Both the position numbers and the translations under genes were made by a program. From Desulfobacteraceae bacterium UBA2174 (lineage in GTDB: Bacteria > Desulfobacterota > Desulfobacteria > Desulfobacterales > UBA2174), in contig DCWA01000019.1 in the NCBI GenBank assembly GCA_002327445.1, forward strand, positions 7,035 to 71,034: a stretch of DNA of 64,000 bases, in the 5' to 3' direction. Every line of letters begins with the position of its first letter. The first letter of the stretch is position 1. The notes beneath the pieces are model-generated. The model saw nothing but the letters and a program-made list of their open reading frames with translations, did not search any database and had not been told where the DNA came from. This document shows positions 8,957 through 25,122 of the stretch, piece after piece.

Positions 8957-10048
8957 TTACGCCTTGCAGGTGACATGGCAAACCCCGGTTGGGGTTTTGA
9001 CCGCGTAGGGGAAATATCTGCGCTTGAACCACAGGGCCACGTTGACCAGCGCGATGAGCACCGGCACCTCCACCAAGGGACCGATCACGGCGGCAAAGGC
9101 TTCCCCCGAGTTGATGCCGAACACGGCCACGGCCACGGCGATGGCCAGCTCGAAGTTGTTGGAAGCGGCGGTGAACGACAAGGTGGTGGCCTGCTCGTAG
9201 GTGGCCTTGAACTTCATGGACATGAAGAAGCTGAGCAGGAACATGACGAGAAAATAGATGCACAGCGGAATGGCGATGCGCACCACGTCCAAGGGCAGCT
9301 TGACGATGTATTCGCCCTTGAGCGAGAACATCACCACGATGGTGAACAGCAGGGCGACCAGGGTCAGGGGGCTGATTTTGGGGATGAAGTATTCATGATA
9401 CCACTTTTCCCCTTTGGTCTTCAGGCCGATGATGCGGGTGATCAGACCGGCGATAAACGGGATGCCCAGATAGATGAAGACGCTTTCGGCGATCTGGCCG
9501 ATGGTGATGTCGACCACGGCGCCTTGGATCCCGAACCATCCGGGCAGGATGGTGATGAAAAACCAGGCGTAAACCGAGAAGAACAGCACCTGGAAGATGG
9601 AGTTGAAGGCCACCAGACCGGCGCAATACTCGGCGTCGCCCTTGGCCAGATCGTTCCAGACCAGCACCATGGCGATGCAGCGCGCCAGGCCGATCATGAT
9701 CAGGCCCACCATGTATTCGTGGTGGCCGGAGAGAAAGGCGATGGCCAGCAGGAACATCAGGATCGGGCCGATGATCCAGTTCTGCGCCAGCGACAGGGTG
9801 AGGATCTTCCCATCTTGAAAGACGAAGCCCAGCTTCTCGTAGCGCACCTTGGCCAGGGGCGGGTACATCATCAGGATCAGGCCCGCGGCGATGGGCAAGT
9901 TGGTGGTGCCCACCTGGAAGATGTTGATGAAATCGCGCACCCCCGGATACAGGTAGCCGCCGAAGACCCCCACGGCCATGGCCAGGAAGATCCACAGGGT
10001 GAGAAAGCGATCCAGAAAGCTCAGGTGCTTGATGGTGGAATCGGTCAT
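8957..10048 (-). CDS. acr3: ACR3-family arsenite efflux permease
   Basis: [27 protein letters not shown]...[12 protein letters not shown]...[13 protein letters not shown] is typical of Acr3. ATG at 10048. Confidence 0.85.
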
Positions 10049-14384: not shown

Positions 14385-15005
14385 ATGACTGAACCGATAA
14401 CAAAGTTCGGTGCCCTGAGGCCCGAGATTCAGCGCCGGCTGGAAGCGGCGGTGATGGAAATTTTTTCCAGCTCCGACTTTCACAAGGCCAACATGCGTGA
14501 TGTGGCCCGCCGTGCCGGCGTCAGCTTCTCCACCATCTATTCGCATTTCGGCAGCAAGGAGCGCCTGGTCTTCGCTTTCGTGGACATCTGGCTCGGCAAG
14601 CTCACCGACCGGATTATCGATCACCTCCAGGGCATCGAGGACCTGAAGGAGAAACTGCGCAAGGTCCTGTGGCTGCAGCTCGACTACTACGAGCGCAACC
14701 CGGGACTGGGGCGGATCTTGTTCATGACATTGCCCATGCAGACCTGGATGGCCGACGAGAGCTTCCAGCAGAAAAAGATGATCCATCTCTACCTGGACGT
14801 GCTGCGGCGGGGACAGCAGGAAGGGGTGCTCGTGGACACGGTGCGGGCCGGCGTGTTGCTCGATTTCATGCTCGGTTTCGTGCAGCGCACCTTTTTCATG
14901 TGGATCTCCAGGGGCCAGCAAGAAGGTCTGGCGGCCCAGTCCAATGTGTTTTTCGAGCTGATCTGGCGTGCTATCGCCAACCCGCGGCACACGGAGAACG
15001 GCTGA
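14385..15005 (+). CDS. TetR/AcrR-family transcriptional regulator
   Basis: ...FHKANMRDVARRAGVSFSTIYSHFGSKERLV is a TetR HTH. Confidence 0.8.
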   Translation: MTEPITKFGALRPEIQRRLEAAVMEIFSSSDFHKANMRDVARRAGVSFSTIYSHFGSKERLVFAFVDIWLGKLTDRIIDHLQGIEDLKEKLRKVLWLQLDYYERNPGLGRILFMTLPMQTWMADESFQQKKMIHLYLDVLRRGQQEGVLVDTVRAGVLLDFMLGFVQRTFFMWISRGQQEGLAAQSNVFFELIWRAIANPRHTENG

Positions 15006-15036
15006 CAGGGTACGGGTCGCGTAAAATTATTTTATA

Positions 15037-15160
15037 TCTGACGGATCTGACGGATCTGACGGATCTGACGGATCGGACGGATCGGACGGATCTGACGGAT
15101 CGGTCGGTTCGGACGGATCGGTCGGTTCGGCCGGTTCGGTCGGATCAAACGGATCGGCTG
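15037..15160. repeat. 9-bp tandem repeat array, ~13.8 units (consensus TCTGACGGA, degenerating to TCGGTCGGT)
   Basis: I split the sequence by hand into 14 units: four perfect TCTGACGGA, then variants. Unit junctions create 10 GATC sites. Lies between tetR and the mutase gene. Confidence 0.9.
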
Positions 15161-17367: not shown

Positions 17368-17428
17368 AAACTGGAAATTGGGTCCTTTGAGTCCCTTTTG
17401 TCCTATTTGTTTTTATTAAAGTTGTTAG

Positions 17429-20078: not shown

Positions 20079-20300
20079 ATGGATACCAAGAAGATGGCGG
20101 CCGTCGGCGCGGCGGTCTTGCAATACATCCGCAGCGAGGAGGAGGCCCTCATGGCCAGCCTGTCGCTGGCACGGATGGCGGCGCCAGCCCCCCAGATCCC
20201 GCTGGCAGCCAAACCCTGGGCGTTCAATGGCCGGCAGCAGCAGATGGAGATGCGCAACCTGATGCAGCTGCGGATCTTCGCCGGGGCAAGGCTCAGATAA
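20079..20300 (+). CDS. Small operon-internal ORF, possibly an OadG-like/epsilon-type accessory subunit of the biotin enzyme
   Basis: 73 aa. GGAG lies 7 nt upstream of the ATG at 20079. MDTKKMAAVGAAVLQYIRSEEEA...PWAFNGRQQQMEMRNLMQLR resembles small subunits next to carboxyltransferases, from weak memory. It lies inside an alternate-frame track ORF. Confidence 0.4.
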   Translation: MDTKKMAAVGAAVLQYIRSEEEALMASLSLARMAAPAPQIPLAAKPWAFNGRQQQMEMRNLMQLRIFAGARLR

Positions 20301-20305
20301 AAAAA

Positions 20306-20441
20306 AGTTACAAGTGACGAGTGAGCTAAAGTGACTAAAGTGAAGCCGCGCCCCGGGAGGCGGCTCTCTACAAGAAGAAAACAGGCGCGAAGCGCTTCCA
20401 CAACTTTAGCTCACTTTAGGCATTCGACACTTTAGCTCACT
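20306..20441. repeat. Composite intergenic element A: AAAGTGAC/AAAGTGAGCT-type tandem units, unique core, then the inverted units (CTTTAGCTCAC)
   Basis: Left GTGAGCTAAAGTG is the exact complement of right CACTTTAGCTCAC, which is present twice. The core holds small GC hairpins (GCCGC...GCGGC; GCGC-GAA-GCGC). Confidence 0.8.
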
Positions 20442-20472
20442 TTTCTTTCGATTTTTTTAAAAGGAGAATCCC

Positions 20473-22521
20473 ATGAGCGACCACGACCAGTTGAAATTGA
20501 CGGCGATGAACTATGCTCCGGACCGTCCCAAGGCGGACAACCCGGTCAAGATCGAGGATTTGAGTCTGCGTGACGGTCACCAGAGCCTGTTCGCCACCCG
20601 CGGGCGCACCGAGGACATGATTCCGGTGGCCGAGCTGATGGACCAGGTGGGTTTCTGGGCCATGGAGGTCTGGGGCGGCGCGACCTTCGACACGATGCAC
20701 CGGTTCTTGAACGAGGATCCCTGGGAGCGGATCCGCACCCTGAAGCGCTACATCAAGAAAACGCCGTTTTCGATGCTGCTGCGCGGTCAAAATCTGGTGG
20801 GCTACCGCAACTACGCCGATGACGTGGCCGAGGTCTTCGTGGAACGGGCCGCGGAAAACGGGATGGACATCTTCCGGACCTTCGACGCCCTCAACGACTA
20901 CCGCAATTTCGAGACCGTAGTGCCGGTGATCAAGCGTTGCGGCAAGCATTTCCAGGGCTGCATCTGCTACAGCCTCACCGAGCCGCGTCTCGGCGGTGAG
21001 GTGTATAACATCGATTACTATGTCTCCAAGGCCAAGGACTTGCAGGCCATGGGGGCCGACAGCGTCTGCATCAAGGACATGGCCGGTCTCATCGCGCCCT
21101 ACGACGCCTACGCGATCGTCAAGGCGATCAAGCAGGTGGTGACAGTGCCGGTTCACCTGCATAGCCACTTCACCTCGGGCATGAGCGCCATGAGCCACCT
21201 GAAGGCCATCGAGGCGGGGGTGGATATCGTGGACACCTGCATGTCGCCATACGCCTTCCGCACGAGCCACCCGGCCATCGAGCCGCTGGTGATGGGCCTG
21301 ATCGGCACCAACCGCGACACGGGCTTCGACATCCGGCTCCTGGCCCGGATCAACGACATTTTGGAGAAGCAGGTGATGCCGAAGTACCGGCACCTGCTTG
21401 ACGACACCAAGATGTCGATCATCGACATCAACGTGCTGCTGCACCAGACCCCGGGCGGGATGTTGAGCAACCTGGTCAACCAGTTGCGCGAGATGGACAA
21501 ACTGGACAAGATCGACGAGGTCTTCAAGGAGTTGCCGCGGGTGCGCAGGGAACTGGGGCAGGTGCCGCTGGTGACCCCGACCAGCCAGATCGTGGGGATC
21601 CAGACGGTCAACAACGTGCTCTTCGACGACGAGAACGAGCGCTACAAGATGATCACCGCCCAGGTGAAGGACCTGTGCTACGGCCTGTACGGCAAGACGG
21701 CGATCCCCATCGACCCGGAGGTCCAGAAGAAGGCATTGAAGGGTTACGCCCGGGGCGAGGAGCCCATCACCTGCCGCCCGGCCGAGGTTCTGGAGCCCGA
21801 GCTGCCCAAAGCCAAAAAAGAGATCGGCGACTTGGCGGTGGATACCGACGACCTGATCACGTACGCCCTGTATCCCGTGACGGGCAAACGCTTCCTCAAC
21901 TGGAAGTACGGCAAGGAGCCGGTGCCCGAGGAGGTGCGTCCCATCACCCTGGAGCAGGTGCACCAACGCCAGGAATTGGTCAAGAAGGCGCTGGCCGGCG
22001 AATTGGTGGAAAAGCCCGCCAAGGAGGCCCCGGAAAAGAGCGCCTCGGCCCGGACCTTCAACGTCTTCGTGGACGGCGAATACTTCGAGGTGGGCGTCGA
22101 CGAGGTGGGGGGCAGCCCGGTGCTGAGCTACATCCAGCAGATGTCGATGATGCCGACGGCGCCGATGGCGCCGATGGCCGCCGTGCCGATTGCCGCCGCG
22201 CCGATGGCGGCGGCACCGAAACCGGCCCCTGCGGCGCCGGCGCCTCGGCCGGCCCCGGAAGCCAAGGCGGAAGCCTCCAAGGCGGCAGCGCCGGCGGGCG
22301 CGGTCTCCGGAACTCCGCTCACCGCGCCCATGCCGGGGATGATCGTCAGCGTGGCCAAGAATGTGGGCGACACCGTGGAAAAGGGCGATACGGTGATCGT
22401 GCTGGAGGCGATGAAGATGGAAAACGCCCTGCCGGCGCCGGTGAGCGGGAAGATCAAGGCGATCAACGTGGCCCAGGGCGCCAGCGTGGCCAAGGGGGCC
22501 GTGCTGGCGGTGATCGGCTAG
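20473..22521 (+). CDS. Transcarboxylase 5S-type carboxyltransferase (oxaloacetate decarboxylase alpha-like) fused to a biotin carboxyl-carrier domain
   Basis: 682 aa. ...IEDLSLRDGHQSL.. is the TIM-barrel pyruvate carboxyltransferase domain. An Ala/Pro-rich linker leads to a C-terminal biotinyl domain with EAMKMEN. Confidence 0.9.
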   Translation: MSDHDQLKLTAMNYAPDRPKADNPVKIEDLSLRDGHQSLFATRGRTEDMIPVAELMDQVGFWAMEVWGGATFDTMHRFLNEDPWERIRTLKRYIKKTPFSMLLRGQNLVGYRNYADDVAEVFVERAAENGMDIFRTFDALNDYRNFETVVPVIKRCGKHFQGCICYSLTEPRLGGEVYNIDYYVSKAKDLQAMGADSVCIKDMAGLIAPYDAYAIVKAIKQVVTVPVHLHSHFTSGMSAMSHLKAIEAGVDIVDTCMSPYAFRTSHPAIEPLVMGLIGTNRDTGFDIRLLARINDILEKQVMPKYRHLLDDTKMSIIDINVLLHQTPGGMLSNLVNQLREMDKLDKIDEVFKELPRVRRELGQVPLVTPTSQIVGIQTVNNVLFDDENERYKMITAQVKDLCYGLYGKTAIPIDPEVQKKALKGYARGEEPITCRPAEVLEPELPKAKKEIGDLAVDTDDLITYALYPVTGKRFLNWKYGKEPVPEEVRPITLEQVHQRQELVKKALAGELVEKPAKEAPEKSASARTFNVFVDGEYFEVGVDEVGGSPVLSYIQQMSMMPTAPMAPMAAVPIAAAPMAAAPKPAPAAPAPRPAPEAKAEASKAAAPAGAVSGTPLTAPMPGMIVSVAKNVGDTVEKGDTVIVLEAMKMENALPAPVSGKIKAINVAQGASVAKGAVLAVIG

Positions 22522-22684
22522 CAAAGTGCCTAAAGTTACGAGTGCCTACAGTTGCAAGTGCCTAAAGTGACGAGTGACTAAAGTGCCTAAAGTTAAGGAA
22601 TTCTGCCATCTCAAATACAGGGGGGCAGTGCCCCCCTTAACTTTAGGTCCCTTTGGTCCCTGAAGTCCTTTACGTCCTTTTCCC
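22522..22684. repeat. Composite intergenic element B: AAAGTGCCT/AAAGTTACGA units, GC hairpin core, right arm switching to GTCCCTTT-type units
   Basis: CCTAAAGTTAAGG (left) pairs with CCTTAACTTTAGG (right). The core hairpin is GGGGGGC-AGT-GCCCCCC. The right arm reads GGTCCCTTTGGTCCCTGAAGTCCTTTACGTCCTTTT. Confidence 0.8.
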
Positions 22685-22707
22685 AAAAGTTTCACAAGGA
22701 GTTAAAA

Positions 22708-23868
22708 ATGAAAATCCACGAATACCAGGCCAAGGAGCTTTTTGGCCGGTACGATGTCCCCATCCCCGCGGGGCGGGCCGCCTTTTCGGTCGACGAGGCC
22801 GTGGCTGCCGCAGATGCCCTCGGGGGGTATCCGGTGGTCGTCAAGGCCCAGATCCACGCCGGCGGCCGCGGGAAGGGCGGCGGCGTGAAGCTGGCCCGTA
22901 GCGCCGGGGATGTGACGACGGTGGCCGGACAGATCCTCGGCATGACCCTGGTGACCCATCAGACCGGGCCTGAAGGCCGGCTGGTCAAAAAGGTGCTGGT
23001 GGAGCAGGGCCTCGATATCGCCAAGGAGCTGTACCTGAGCCTCCTGCCCGACCGCGGCAGCGCCAAGTACCTCATCATGGCCAGCGAGGCGGGCGGGATG
23101 GACATCGAGAAAGTGGCTGCCGAAACGCCGGAAAAGATCGTCAAGGTATGGGTCGATCCGCTCATCGGGCTCCAGTCCTTTCATGTGCGCGAGGTCGGTT
23201 TCGGCCTGAACCTGCCGCCGGCGGCGATGAAGCCGTTTACCAAGCTGCTGACGAACCTGTTCAGGCTCTTTGTCGAGCTGGATTGCTCCCTGGTGGAAAT
23301 CAACCCCTTGGTGCTTACCGCCGACGACCGGGTCCTGGCCCTGGACGCCAAAATCAACTTCGACGACAACGCCCTCTATCGCCACAAGGACATCCTCGCG
23401 TACCGCGACCTGGACGAGGAAGATCCCCTGGAGGTGGAGGCCTCGGCCCACCACCTCAACTATATCAAACTCGATGGCAACGTGGGCAACATGGTCAACG
23501 GCGCCGGCCTGGCCATGGCGACCATGGACATCATCAAGCGCGCCGGGGCATCGCCGGCCAATTTTCTGGACGTCGGCGGCGGGGCCAGCGCCGAGATGGT
23601 GGAGAACGGTTTCCGCATCATCCTCTCGGACCCCAACGTCAAGGGGATTTTGATCAACATCTTCGGCGGCATCCTGCGCTGCGACGTGCTGGCCCAAGGG
23701 GTGGTGGAAGCCGCCAAGAAGACCAGGGTCAGCGTGCCGGTGGTCGTGCGCATGGAGGGGACCAACGTCGAGGAGGGACGGCGCATCCTGGCCGAATCGG
23801 GACTCGACCTGACCGGTGCGGTGGATCTGAAGGATGCGGCGGCCAAAGTGGCCAGTATTGTGAAGTGA
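22708..23868 (+). CDS. sucC: Succinyl-CoA synthetase beta subunit
   Basis: [20 protein letters not shown]...[19 protein letters not shown]. Confidence 0.95.
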
Positions 23869-24103
23869 CTAAAGTTACGAGTGACTAAAGTTACGAGTGA
23901 CTAAAGTGACTAAAGTTTAAAGTGGCTAAAGTTCTTTTAGGGGAAGGATTCGACGATTCAAATTGCCGGAGCGAAGCGACTCCTGAACTTTAGGCACTTT
24001 AGTTCACTTTAGGCACTTTAGTTCACTTTAGGCACTTTAGGCACTTTAGCTCACTTTAGGCACTTTAGCTCACTTTAGGCACTTTAGTTCATTTTAGACA
24101 CTT
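23863..24103. repeat. Composite intergenic element C (largest): ~7 AAAGTGACT/AAAGTTACGAGTGACT units, core, then ~12 inverted CTTTAGGCA/CTTTAGTTCA/CTTTAGCTCA units
   Basis: Read directly. The left arm starts at the sucC stop codon. The arms are about 90% complementary unit-for-unit: AGTGACTAAAGT vs the reverse complement AGTGCCTAAAGT. Confidence 0.85.
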
Positions 24104-24123
24104 CCTATCCGAAAGGGTTTCGC

Positions 24124-25002
24124 ATGAGCATCTTCGTCAACGCAGACACCCGTGTCCTGGTGCAGGGCATCACCGGGCGCGAGGGGCAATTCCACACCCG
24201 CCAGTGCCTCGCCTATGGCACCCGGGTGGTGGCCGGGGTCACGCCGGGCAAGGGCGGGCAAAAAATGGATGAGGTGCCGGTCTTCGACACCGTGCGTCAG
24301 GCCATGGCCGCCACCGGCGCCAACTGCAGCCTGATCTTCGTTCCGCCGCCCTTTGCCGCCGATGCCATCCTGGAGTCGGCGGAAGCCGGCATATCGGTCA
24401 TCGTGGCCATCACCGAAGGGATTCCGGTGATGGACATGCTGAAGGTCAAAAATTTCATTCAAAACAAGATGCTGCGCCTCATCGGGCCCAACTGCCCGGG
24501 GATCATCACGCCAGGTGCCTGCAAGATCGGCATCATGCCGGCGGCGATCCACAAACCCGGCGGCCCCATCGGGGTCGTTTCCCGTAGCGGGACACTGACC
24601 TACGAGGTAGTTCACCAGCTCACCGGCCAGGGGATCGGTCAGACCACTTGCATCGGCATCGGCGGCGATCCGGTCAACGGGACCAACTTCATCGACTGCC
24701 TCAAGGCGTTCGAAGAAGACCCGGATACCCGGGGCATCGTGATGGTGGGAGAGATCGGCGGTTCAGCCGAGGAAGAGGCCGCGGCCTGGATCGCGGCCAA
24801 TGGGTCCAAGCCGGTGGTGGGGTTCATCGCCGGGCTCACCGCCCCCCCGGGCCGCCGCATGGGCCACGCCGGGGCCATCGTCAGCGGGGGCAGCGGTACC
24901 GCCGAGGGCAAGATCGCTGCCATGCGACAGAGCGGGATCGCGGTCTGCGAGGACCTGGGCACCCTGGGCGAGATGTGCAAGAGGGTGTTTGGCAAAAGCT
25001 GA
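24124..25002 (+). CDS. sucD: Succinyl-CoA synthetase alpha subunit
   Basis: [25 protein letters not shown]...SRSGTLTYE...GIGGDP...GHAGAI. Confidence 0.95.
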
Positions 25003-25050
25003 AGCACCCTCTTTTTTACCGTCAAGACACCGCGTCGGAGCACAATGTCA

Positions 25051-25086
25051 GACAGGTCGGACCCAGCCGGACCGGTCTGACCTGTC
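25051..25086 (+). terminator. Strong hairpin after sucD (13-bp stem, no U-tract): possible operon-end or RNA-stability element
   Basis: GACAGGTCGGACC / GGTCTGACCTGTC with one G-U pair, loop CAGCCGGACC. It is followed by CGAAAAAG, so it is not a canonical intrinsic terminator. Confidence 0.35.
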
Positions 25087-25122
25087 CGAAAAAGCAAACG
25101 CTTGAAACATTAAAGGGTTTTC

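Follow-up and report, generated by a model that had tools for sequence, protein, structure and literature searches.

What fills three gene spacers of a methylmalonyl-CoA/succinyl-CoA operon, and is it confined to that operon? The operon lies in a stretch of 64 kb (61.6% G+C) of contig DCWA01000019.1 of Desulfobacteraceae bacterium UBA2174, referred to here as the window, and a sequence-only reading of the window had noted inverted-repeat elements built of short tandem units in these spacers. The spacers (20301-20472, 22522-22707 and 23869-24123) each carry an array (CTAAAGTG-N1-2)n, a unique core and an inverted array (N1-2-CACTTTAG)n, and are referred to as elements A, B and C. The family to which they belong is real, widespread and apparently unnamed, and is probably a mobile element resembling repetitive extragenic palindromes (REP) and short tandemly repeated repetitive (STRR) sequences, not a local oddity. 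The parts of the three elements are as follows.

20306-20343, plus strand: element A, left arm, AGTTACAAGTGACG-AGTGAGCTAA-AGTGACTAA-AGTGA

20344-20401, plus strand: element A, unique core, with a GC hairpin at 20345-20364 (GCCGC..GCGGC) and a C-GAA-G triloop mini-hairpin, GGCGCGAAGCGCTTCC, at 20384-20399

20402-20444, minus strand: element A, right arm, AACTTTAGCTC-ACTTTAGGC-ATTCGAC-ACTTTAGCTC-ACTTTT

22522-22598, plus strand: element B, left arm, of 16-nt composite units AGTGCCTAAAGTTACG and 9-nt units

22599-22634, plus strand: element B, core, with AATTCTGCCATCTCAAATACA and the hairpin GGGGGGCA-g-TGCCCCCC (22620-22636)

22635-22684, minus strand: element B, right side, with one true unit CCTTAACTTTAGG (22635-22647) followed by diverged GTCCYTTNN units (22646-22684)

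23862-23934, plus strand: element C, left arm, of six units, two of them 16-nt composites

23935-23985, plus strand: element C, core, GAAGGATTC..CAAATTGCC-GGAGCGAAGCGACTCC, with a mini-hairpin at 23968-23983, a member of the conserved core subfamily of ~55 nt

23986-24105, minus strand: element C, right arm, of 11 exact and 1-2 degenerate CACTTTAG units, alternating between 9 and 10 nt

Exact matches to CTAAAGTK in the 64 kb number 26 and all fall within the three spacers, those on the plus strand to the left of a core and those on the minus strand to the right; dinucleotide shuffles averaged 0.60 and never exceeded 3. Tandem Repeats Finder (TRF) reported periods of 9, 16, 19, 28 and 47 in the spacers; TRF and an inverted-repeat scan together confirmed tandem periods of 9, 10 and 16 and pairing of the arms over up to 21 nt. 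The left arm of element A begins 6 nt past the stop codon of an open reading frame (ORF) of 73 amino acids (20079-20300), its mini-hairpin lies 5 nt upstream of the first ACTTTA of the right arm, and 28 nt separate the end of the right arm from the 5S transcarboxylase ATG (20473). The left arm of element B lies directly 3' of the 5S stop codon (22519-22521), and the first half of its core shares homology with AAGGAATTCTG.CA, the consensus of the subfamily core. The first unit of element C (AAGTGA) makes up the final Lys codon and the stop of sucC, AAG TGA at 23863-23868, and the right arm ends 18 nt before the ATG of sucD (24124).

The sequence-only reading had assigned one architecture to all three spacers. 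This is correct for elements A and C, but element B is asymmetric, its core being followed on the right by a single true CACTTTAG unit. The core motif thought to be common to A and C was identified in both (GCGAAGCG..(C)TCC..AACTTTAG), and the count of about 12 units in the right arm of element C agrees with the 11 exact and 1-2 degenerate units found. Element C had been placed in the sucC/sucD spacer; its first unit, however, overlaps the last codon and stop of sucC. Pairing of the arms over tens of base pairs was also borne out, with stretches of 13-21 nt at 89-100%. In element A, 13 nt pair at 100% (AGTGAGCTAAAGT / ACTTTAGCTCACT) and 19 nt at 89%; in element B, 13 nt pair at 100% (CCTAAAGTTAAGG / CCTTAACTTTAGG); and element C forms 29 pairs, the longest stretch being 21 nt at 90%. 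RNA folding of each spacer, which had been suggested as a check, gave predicted energies of -52 to -87 kcal/mol with z-scores of -3.7 to -6.5 (A, -54.0 kcal/mol, z -4.7; B, -52.2 kcal/mol, z -3.7; C, -86.5 kcal/mol, z -6.5), and no fold as stable was seen in 200 shuffles in each case. The diverged GTCCYTTNN units of element B form G-U pairs with the left arm in the predicted RNA fold. As single-stranded DNA, element A is predicted to fold at -31.3 kcal/mol (z -5.2).

An assembly artefact was considered and rejected. Spacers A and B in same-species contigs (JGI, ENA, Logan) are identical to those of the window, and spacer C is identical in three contigs that span it (L002, L003 and L005); since independent assemblies carry identical spacers, the feature is real. 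One metagenome-assembled genome (MAG) contig from NCBI (L001) lacks 66 nt (seven units) of the right arm of element C and 18 nt (two units) of an array of another unit family at 15036-15157. Four contigs (L004, L006, L007 and L008) end just past sucC, at element C, and positions 9620-9720 of a relative's contig (L225) are a run of N; short-read assemblies are broken or masked at elements C and B. The array lengths in MAGs, the window included, may therefore be under- or over-collapsed. In practice, such arrays interrupt short-read assemblies at operon spacers, and array copy number in MAGs cannot be trusted.

Confinement to this locus, which the sequence-only reading had named among its refuting conditions, fails decisively: the family turns up at hundreds of sites in sediment bacteria belonging to at least three phyla, and in their phages. 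A scan of one genome per species with the pattern AGTG-N1-2-CTAAAGTG-N1-2-CTAAAG (18 specified bases) identified at least 120 loci. Among the genome loci listed, 60 are from Desulfobacterota, 26 from Bacteroidota and 14 from Planctomycetota, as judged from record titles, with one or two each from KSB1, Zixibacteria, Aegiribacteria, Chlorobiota, Nitrospirae, Anaerolineales, Patescibacteria, UASB270 and others. The loci include carrier contigs of 0.4-4.1 Mb, and mis-binning thus cannot explain the spread. One match in Fontibacillus, apparently in a coding repeat, is likely to be spurious. The same pattern matched 90 stretches of viral contigs. Two of these contigs (L153 and L180) represent one phage, encoding a terminase, a portal protein and two methylases, which carries at least five copies in 11 kb, with an element or half-element at nearly every gene junction; elements were also present between phage structural genes. 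A metagenome scan with the 21-nt composite unit GTGMCTAAAGTKACGAGTGMC, for which ~2 chance matches were estimated, identified at least 120 loci, and ~30 of those listed have a G+C content of at least 57%, similar to the source lineage.

The sequence-only reading had recognised no described repeat family, and we likewise found none. Rfam gave no match at the gathering score for the whole window and none at E ≤ 1 for 20250-24150. A literature search with six unit strings returned unrelated primer matches only, and concept searches led to analogues and not to the CTAAAGTG family. No match to element C was found by blastn against GenBank phages and PLSDB plasmids, a search in which the low-complexity filter may have masked the query.

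The architecture of the family is 5'-(AAGTG-N1-2-CTA)n, a core of ~10-270 nt, and (TAG-N1-2-CACTT)n-3'. In the fetched loci, successive TAAAGT cores are separated by 9 nt (291 times), 10 nt (210 times) or 16-17 nt (93 times). The 8-nt unit core is kept across phyla and the linker of 1-2 nt is free, with the variants GCC, GAC, GAGC, GAAC, GGC, GATC and GTC. Arms mostly contain 2-4 units, and the 11-12 units of the right arm of element C represent the extreme tail. Polarity is fixed: within 300 nt there were 59 pairs of a plus arm followed by a minus arm and none of the reverse order, with a median core of 50 nt. The element ends are constant (5'-AAGTG...CACTT-3'), and some run on into degenerate AAGTTTG or AAGTGTG units. 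A core subfamily of ~55 nt includes window elements A, B (first half) and C and has the consensus GAAGGAATTCTGGCAGTTATAAAAA(G/A)CCG-GAGCG-N-AGCGAC-WCC-N2-3-AACTTTAG. The C-G[N]A-G triloop hairpin is invariant in the subfamily core, the middle base being A in 11 copies, C in eight, T in three and G in one; d(GCGNAGC) mini-hairpins are unusually stable in single-stranded DNA. Other copies have cores that are short, AT-rich and lineage-specific.

The elements sit almost only in intergenic spacers, often reaching from a stop codon to near the next start. By crude gene calls (longest ORFs), ~85-90% of clusters are intergenic, and the flanking genes are co-directional in 56 cases, convergent in 15 and divergent in 11. 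Where the flanking genes are co-directional, the upstream stop is a median of 22 nt away and the following start 42 nt away. Solo arrays in the sense orientation lie a median of 6 nt past a stop, and for those in the antisense orientation the median gap to the next start is 31 nt. At sucC, the protein ends in ...IVK* (in one case ...MVK*), encoded by AAG TGA or AAA TGA, in the relatives with element C (L219, L221, L227 and L228), and in ...IVA* in those without it (L223 and L224), and the choice of AAG or AAA for the last codon tends to follow the unit type. The terminal unit of element C has replaced the original last codon and stop of sucC; arrays can supply a gene with both.

The operon was compared in relatives chosen by SucC identity. 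Spacer A is occupied in all four species at 92-94%, two of which have AAGTG/CACTT units and two AAATG/CATTT units (L219/L225 and L221). Both arms and all units have changed together, with GC-to-AU double changes at two predicted pairs, and the cores of the two groups are not alignable; the two arms evolve together. Element B is shared with one 94% species (L219), shortened in a 92% species and absent in a 93% species (L221), and in an 82% species (L224) it has an inverted core and a different position. Element C is A-type or degenerate in species at 89-94% and absent at 82-83% (L223 and L224), and the 82% relative carries a hairpin of GAACGTTGAAC-type units in the mcm/meaB spacer instead. The comparison of spacers in related genomes, proposed by the sequence-only reading, shows turnover of elements B and C.

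Copies also multiply within genomes. In one MAG, four copies with unrelated flanks share 91-95% identity over 111-142 nt, and identical 34-nt cores recur among the copies of one phage. Complete elements (arm, core, arm) were found two to three times head to tail, resembling clusters of bacterial interspersed mosaic elements (BIMEs), at L290 3032-3568, L325 3222-3703, L244 1393-1745 and L293 1-298. The arms lengthen and shorten by whole units. Two phage genomes are separated by two single-nucleotide differences in 11 kb and by a single 10-nt tandem unit within a core, which places unit slippage among the fastest changes seen.

The reading that we prefer, to which we give about an even chance, is that of a dispersed, horizontally spread DNA element of the REP/BIME/STRR type, tolerated in operon spacers through its hairpin. 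In this mechanism, "inverted tandem-array" elements would be copied to new sites without target duplication, by a hairpin or single-stranded DNA route or by recombination, with a mobilising enzyme supplied in trans, and their arms would expand by slipped-strand mispairing until coding sequence was reached. Persistence in operons would follow if the element folds back in the mRNA and holds the upstream stop near the downstream ribosome-binding site. By analogy with REP and Correia elements, the hairpin could then block decay, offer a site to RNase III or act as a partial terminator, tuning the relative expression of the flanking genes.

Several results weigh against this reading. Direct matches of at least 2 nt, as expected of a target-site duplication, were found at 6 of 44 elements versus 3.3 expected from shuffled partners, and none exceeded 4 nt; no conserved target motif was found at the elements. 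The ORFs around the 120 listed genome loci (~0.8 Mb) were clustered all against all and then compared with Pfam, and no recurrent gene or transposase-like family was identified there. No clean pair of filled and empty alleles was found, and mobility is therefore inferred from copy patterns only. Approximately 44% of arms of at least two units have no exact-unit partner, so a hairpin is not obligatory. Species at 89-94% SucC identity keep elements A-C in the same spacers, all window copies are in one operon, and other unit families fill its spacers in a more distant relative; this looks more like selection or a local hot spot than like random selfish insertion. Recognition by a conserved host factor would likewise lead one to expect 8-nt units that are near-identical across phyla.

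The lack of duplication argues against cut-and-paste DDE transposition, and would leave hairpin or single-strand routes (REP/RAYT, IS200/IS605), recombination or an unrecognised factor. The neighbours of the elements were ABC ATPases, histidine kinases, radical-SAM and HdrD-like proteins, which are common housekeeping families. No unit consisting of a plus arm, a transposase gene and a minus arm was found among the fetched loci; a few long-spaced arm pairs enclose phage capsid, four-helix-bundle or DUF218-like genes. One phage ORF with elements on both sides (L180 2499-3143) has a weak match to the DnaA C-terminal helix-turn-helix domain (E 2.6e-5, below the Pfam cut-off) and no PHROG match; DnaA boxes are 9-mers as well. 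The solo arms showed a slight excess of complementarity on the expected side (72:53, p = 0.015), and in those inspected the other half was decayed or came from another unit family. Their geometry fits halves of composite elements.

Whether the inherited entity is DNA or RNA was addressed by strand comparisons. No sense-strand fold advantage was found in 44 elements between co-directional genes (21:23, p = 0.97), and relative to co-directional genes the conserved asymmetric core is sense in six cases and antisense in four; in a flank-strand test of the core mini-hairpin the orientations were mixed, in too few cases to carry weight. An asymmetric core in either orientation points to a DNA element and not a sense-strand RNA motif, and a motif selected on the sense RNA was rejected on the fold counts and on the 6:4 split of the core. 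The degenerate older copies of the operon fold better in the sense than in the antisense direction (L219_B, -50.5 vs -33.0 kcal/mol; L221_C, -35.3 vs -20.6 kcal/mol), an advantage that is mostly compositional and weak after composition control. The sequence-only reading had suggested an effect on mRNA processing or stability, which we also infer; as the inherited entity is a DNA element found in either orientation, any such effect must come from the symmetric hairpin.

The sequence-only reading was right to set aside three other kinds of feature. A CRISPR array was rejected, as the units are contiguous and 9-10 nt long and there are no repeats of 24-48 nt with unique spacers. An intrinsic terminator was rejected, there being no GC hairpin with a U-tract at the elements: terminator-like sites in 10.4 kb numbered 14 versus 9.0 +/- 2.8 expected, not in excess, with none at an element end, and the only such match inside an element was the core hairpin of B, on both strands and with no true T-run. 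The elements are non-coding, since the mixture of 9- and 10-nt units breaks every reading frame and the units contain TAA, TGA and TAG. A promoter scan of the spacers called none and showed no excess.

Four other explanations were weighed. The elements could be host-selected RNA hairpins acting in cis as an exonuclease barrier, RNase III site or partial terminator, with spread being secondary and the stem setting the relative expression of the 12S/5S transcarboxylase, SucC and SucD. This would account for the strong predicted hairpins, for elements that run from stop codons to near the next ribosome-binding site, for the retention of the same spacers with compensatory changes across the 89-94% species, for the better sense-strand folding of degenerate copies with more G-U pairs, and for the copies between phage structural genes, and it has precedents in REP and Correia elements (bioRxiv 10.64898/2026.03.23.713779; PMC10969869). 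However, the lack of sense bias among the 44 elements, the weak sense advantage in the operon after composition control, the core in both orientations, the position of 11 of 82 elements between divergent genes and the 44% of solo arms do not fit a sense-RNA signal, and we consider this explanation unlikely. The binding of proteins and of gyrase is known for BIMEs. Arrays of double-stranded DNA binding sites for a nucleoid-associated or global regulatory protein or gyrase, in which the tandem unit is functional and the inverted pair is one arrangement of it, would resemble the proposal made for the paired tandem repeats of Geobacter (PMC2700814). The conserved 8-nt unit core with its free linker, the many solo arrays, their polarity to gene ends (6 nt past a stop, 31 nt before a start) and the many other 7-10-nt unit families with the same layout are all consistent with such sites. 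Against them, no candidate protein was found, the alternation of 9 and 10 bp rotates successive sites around the helix, one and the same protein would have to be conserved in Bacteroidota, Desulfobacterota and phages, and the polarity of solo arrays is explained equally well by halves of composite elements; we regard binding arrays, which the sequence-only reading had suggested in a phased form, as quite unlikely.

A purely local origin, in which each array arose by replication slippage in a hairpin-forming spacer with no movement, draws on the unit-number polymorphism, the fresh 10-nt tandem duplication inside a core and a ATCTGACGG array in the window that is expanded only in the window's species, and slippage of the polymerase has been given as the reason for an excess of heptamers in bacteria (PMC4692102). 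Against it, loci, phyla and phages that are unrelated have the same unit, linkers and polarity, together with homologous cores of ~55 nt, a pattern that independent origin cannot give. Local origin is thus largely refuted and very improbable, surviving as a mechanism of arm growth. The arms could also be convergent weak promoters firing toward the core, with GTGACT as a -35-like and TAAAGT as a -10-like hexamer (A-11/T-7 kept) at a spacing of 17 nt, which can be read directly from three 9-nt units (GTGACTAAAGTGACTAAAGTGACTAAAGT) and would suit the fixed inward polarity. The fit amounts to 8 of 12 consensus matches, which is below the scan threshold, none was called in the spacers, and GTGCCT and 10-nt units break it. 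Bacteroidota use a different promoter consensus and yet carry the same units, which counts further against promoters; we find this last explanation scarcely credible.

A broader proposal, which is tentative and in our judgement doubtful, is that the CTAAAGTG elements and their sister families of 7-10-nt units form the cis part of an unrecognised system of sediment bacteria of several phyla and their phages. In such a system, a conserved enzyme or binding protein acting in trans may recognise the arms or the C-GNA-G mini-hairpin in single-stranded or cruciform DNA. If true, it would either copy the elements to other spacers, which would make them a new class of hairpin mobile element with a transposase in trans, or use them as a common phage-host regulatory or replication signal.

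Other arrays were identified in and around the operon, whose order (Pfam labels) is a tetR-like regulator, methylmalonyl-CoA mutase (mcm), MeaB, carboxyltransferase 12S, the 73-amino-acid ORF, 5S with a biotinyl domain, sucC, sucD, hypA and a cobW-like gene.

15036-15157, plus strand: array of another unit family, 13.6 tandem copies of ATCTGACGG, in the tetR/mcm spacer

17380-17409, plus strand: GTCCYTTNN array of three units (GGGTCCTTTGAGTCCCTTTTGTCCTATTTG), in the mcm/meaB spacer, of the variant seen on the right side of element B

No inverted partner was found for the ATCTGACGG array at 15036-15157, which begins just past a sigma70-like promoter match at 15002-15030 (-10). In relatives at 93-94%, ~4 degenerate copies are present in L219/L225 and none in L221, which points to a recent expansion in the window's species. 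The GTCCYTTNN units (17380-17409 and 22646-22684) look like diverged GTCACTTTA units able to form G-U pairs with CTAAAGTG units. The sucD/hypA spacer carries at 25047-25089 a 16-nt inverted repeat (TCAGACAGGTCGGACC / GGTCTGACCTGTCCGA) built of GGACCGG-like units, where relatives have tandem GTCGGACCG units; the unit resembles the GGACCGG heptamer family of Geobacter metallireducens, of which 49 copies were reported (PMC2700814). The tandem 9- and 15-nt repeats at 22152-22249, inside the 5S gene, are coding repeats for an Ala/Pro-rich linker (PMAPMAAVPIAAAPMAAAPKPAPAAPAP) and are unrelated to the spacer elements.

TRF analysis of the fetched loci L009-L228 (~1.6 Mb) showed ~470 further arrays with a period of 7-11, usually with 4.4-5.4 copies and a length of 30-38 nt, and many of these form inverted pairs, often 50-110 nt apart. 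Unit families that recur in unrelated genomes and viral contigs include GAACATC, ATTGACT, CAGAAGA, GATTGTT, ACCGGCTA and others. The CTAAAGTG family is thus one of a broad and scarcely described class. Two different viral contigs (L159 13330-13466 and L185 10513-10631) end in a pure array of at least 13-15 GTGCCTAAA units that runs off the contig end and is preceded by identical flanks, representing either a genome terminus or a plain assembly break.

REP, BIME and STRR-type repeats have been known for more than 30 years, with their origin, spread and function unsettled, and their families are usually found within a genus or family. The present family is unusual in its very short, trackable unit, its fixed polarity and its conserved mini-hairpin core, and its breadth across Desulfobacterota, Bacteroidota, Planctomycetota and phages makes the question of spread testable. 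The suggestion of the sequence-only reading that the elements are REP/BIME-like or MITE-like (MITEs being miniature transposable elements with inverted repeats) stands insofar as they behave as an intergenic palindromic repeat; it fails in that there is no GTAG or CGTC tag, the unit is non-palindromic and no target-site duplication was found. A REP is an imperfect palindrome of 20-40 bp, one end of which bears a GTAG or CGTC tag that is left unpaired (Di Nocera et al. 2013, PMC3733652), and REP325 acts as both terminator and stabiliser (bioRxiv 10.64898/2026.03.23.713779). The elements resemble the REP, BIME and REPIN sequences of enterobacteria and Pseudomonas in being extragenic and high-copy, mostly in co-directional or convergent spacers near the 3' end of the upstream gene, in forming larger hairpins from inverted pairs and tandem clusters of whole elements, in varying between strains and lacking target duplication, and in their expected role as mRNA stabiliser or partial terminator. 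They differ in that the CTAAAGTG units are 9-10 nt long and not self-complementary, the ends are AAGTG...CACTT, no GTAG or CGTC was seen beside the arms or core hairpins in the inspected sequences, and no RAYT gene was seen near elements in the fetched loci; moreover, a REP family does not usually extend beyond one genus or family, whereas the CTAAAGTG family spans phyla and phages.

MITEs such as Correia and Chunjie provide a second comparison: Chunjie is present in operons without breaking them, and RNase III cleaves the hairpin of Correia, which can affect expression (PMC10969869). The elements share with MITEs a length of ~100-250 bp, terminal inverted repeats (the 59:0 polarity), many size variants and partial copies. 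However, MITEs have target-site duplications and a parent insertion sequence (IS), neither of which was found for the CTAAAGTG elements in the fetched loci, and where a MITE has a fixed inverted repeat, the CTAAAGTG arms are tandem arrays that vary in copy number.

The layout matches that of short paired or tandem arrays. In Geobacter metallireducens, classes 1-3 consist of opposite-strand pairs of 3-5 tandem repeats of 7-9 nt, for example at proB-proA, with the units GTTGCTYN, TCTCCGTS[Y] and MTYCTGA, which were termed "putative global regulator binding sites" and proposed, without test, to be sites for IHF/HU (Aklujkar et al. 2009, PMC2700814). These resemble the present elements in their variable pair distance, their intergenic and intra-operon positions and the presence of several unit families per genome; they differ in unit sequence, were described as unique to one genome, have no conserved core described, and have IS elements inserted at a fixed distance, none of which was seen for the CTAAAGTG elements. 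The G-rich heptamer arrays of Xanthomonas and Nostoc are 89-93% intergenic in xanthomonads, lie a mean of 28 nt from the upstream ORF, include some inverted pairs and some intra-operon arrays (pecE-pecF), and vary in length and sequence between close relatives (Rehm et al. 2015, PMC4692102). The STRR of Calothrix, as cited in that paper, are similar short tandem arrays. Both resemble the elements in being short intergenic arrays, mostly in co-directional spacers, nearer the upstream ORF and conserved in position, and differ in their period of 7 versus 9-10, their lineage specificity, their G-quadruplex potential, absent from CTAAAGTG units, and their having no known shared core. The elements are intergenic arrays of at least three tandem units, often in opposite-strand pairs, as in the STRR/Geobacter-type class, with its units of 7-9 nt, a class defined by description only. 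As a similar architecture has already been described in Geobacter (PMC2700814), in xanthomonads and Nostoc (PMC4692102) and in Calothrix, the kind of element is not new; what is new is the CTAAAGTG family itself and the breadth of its distribution.

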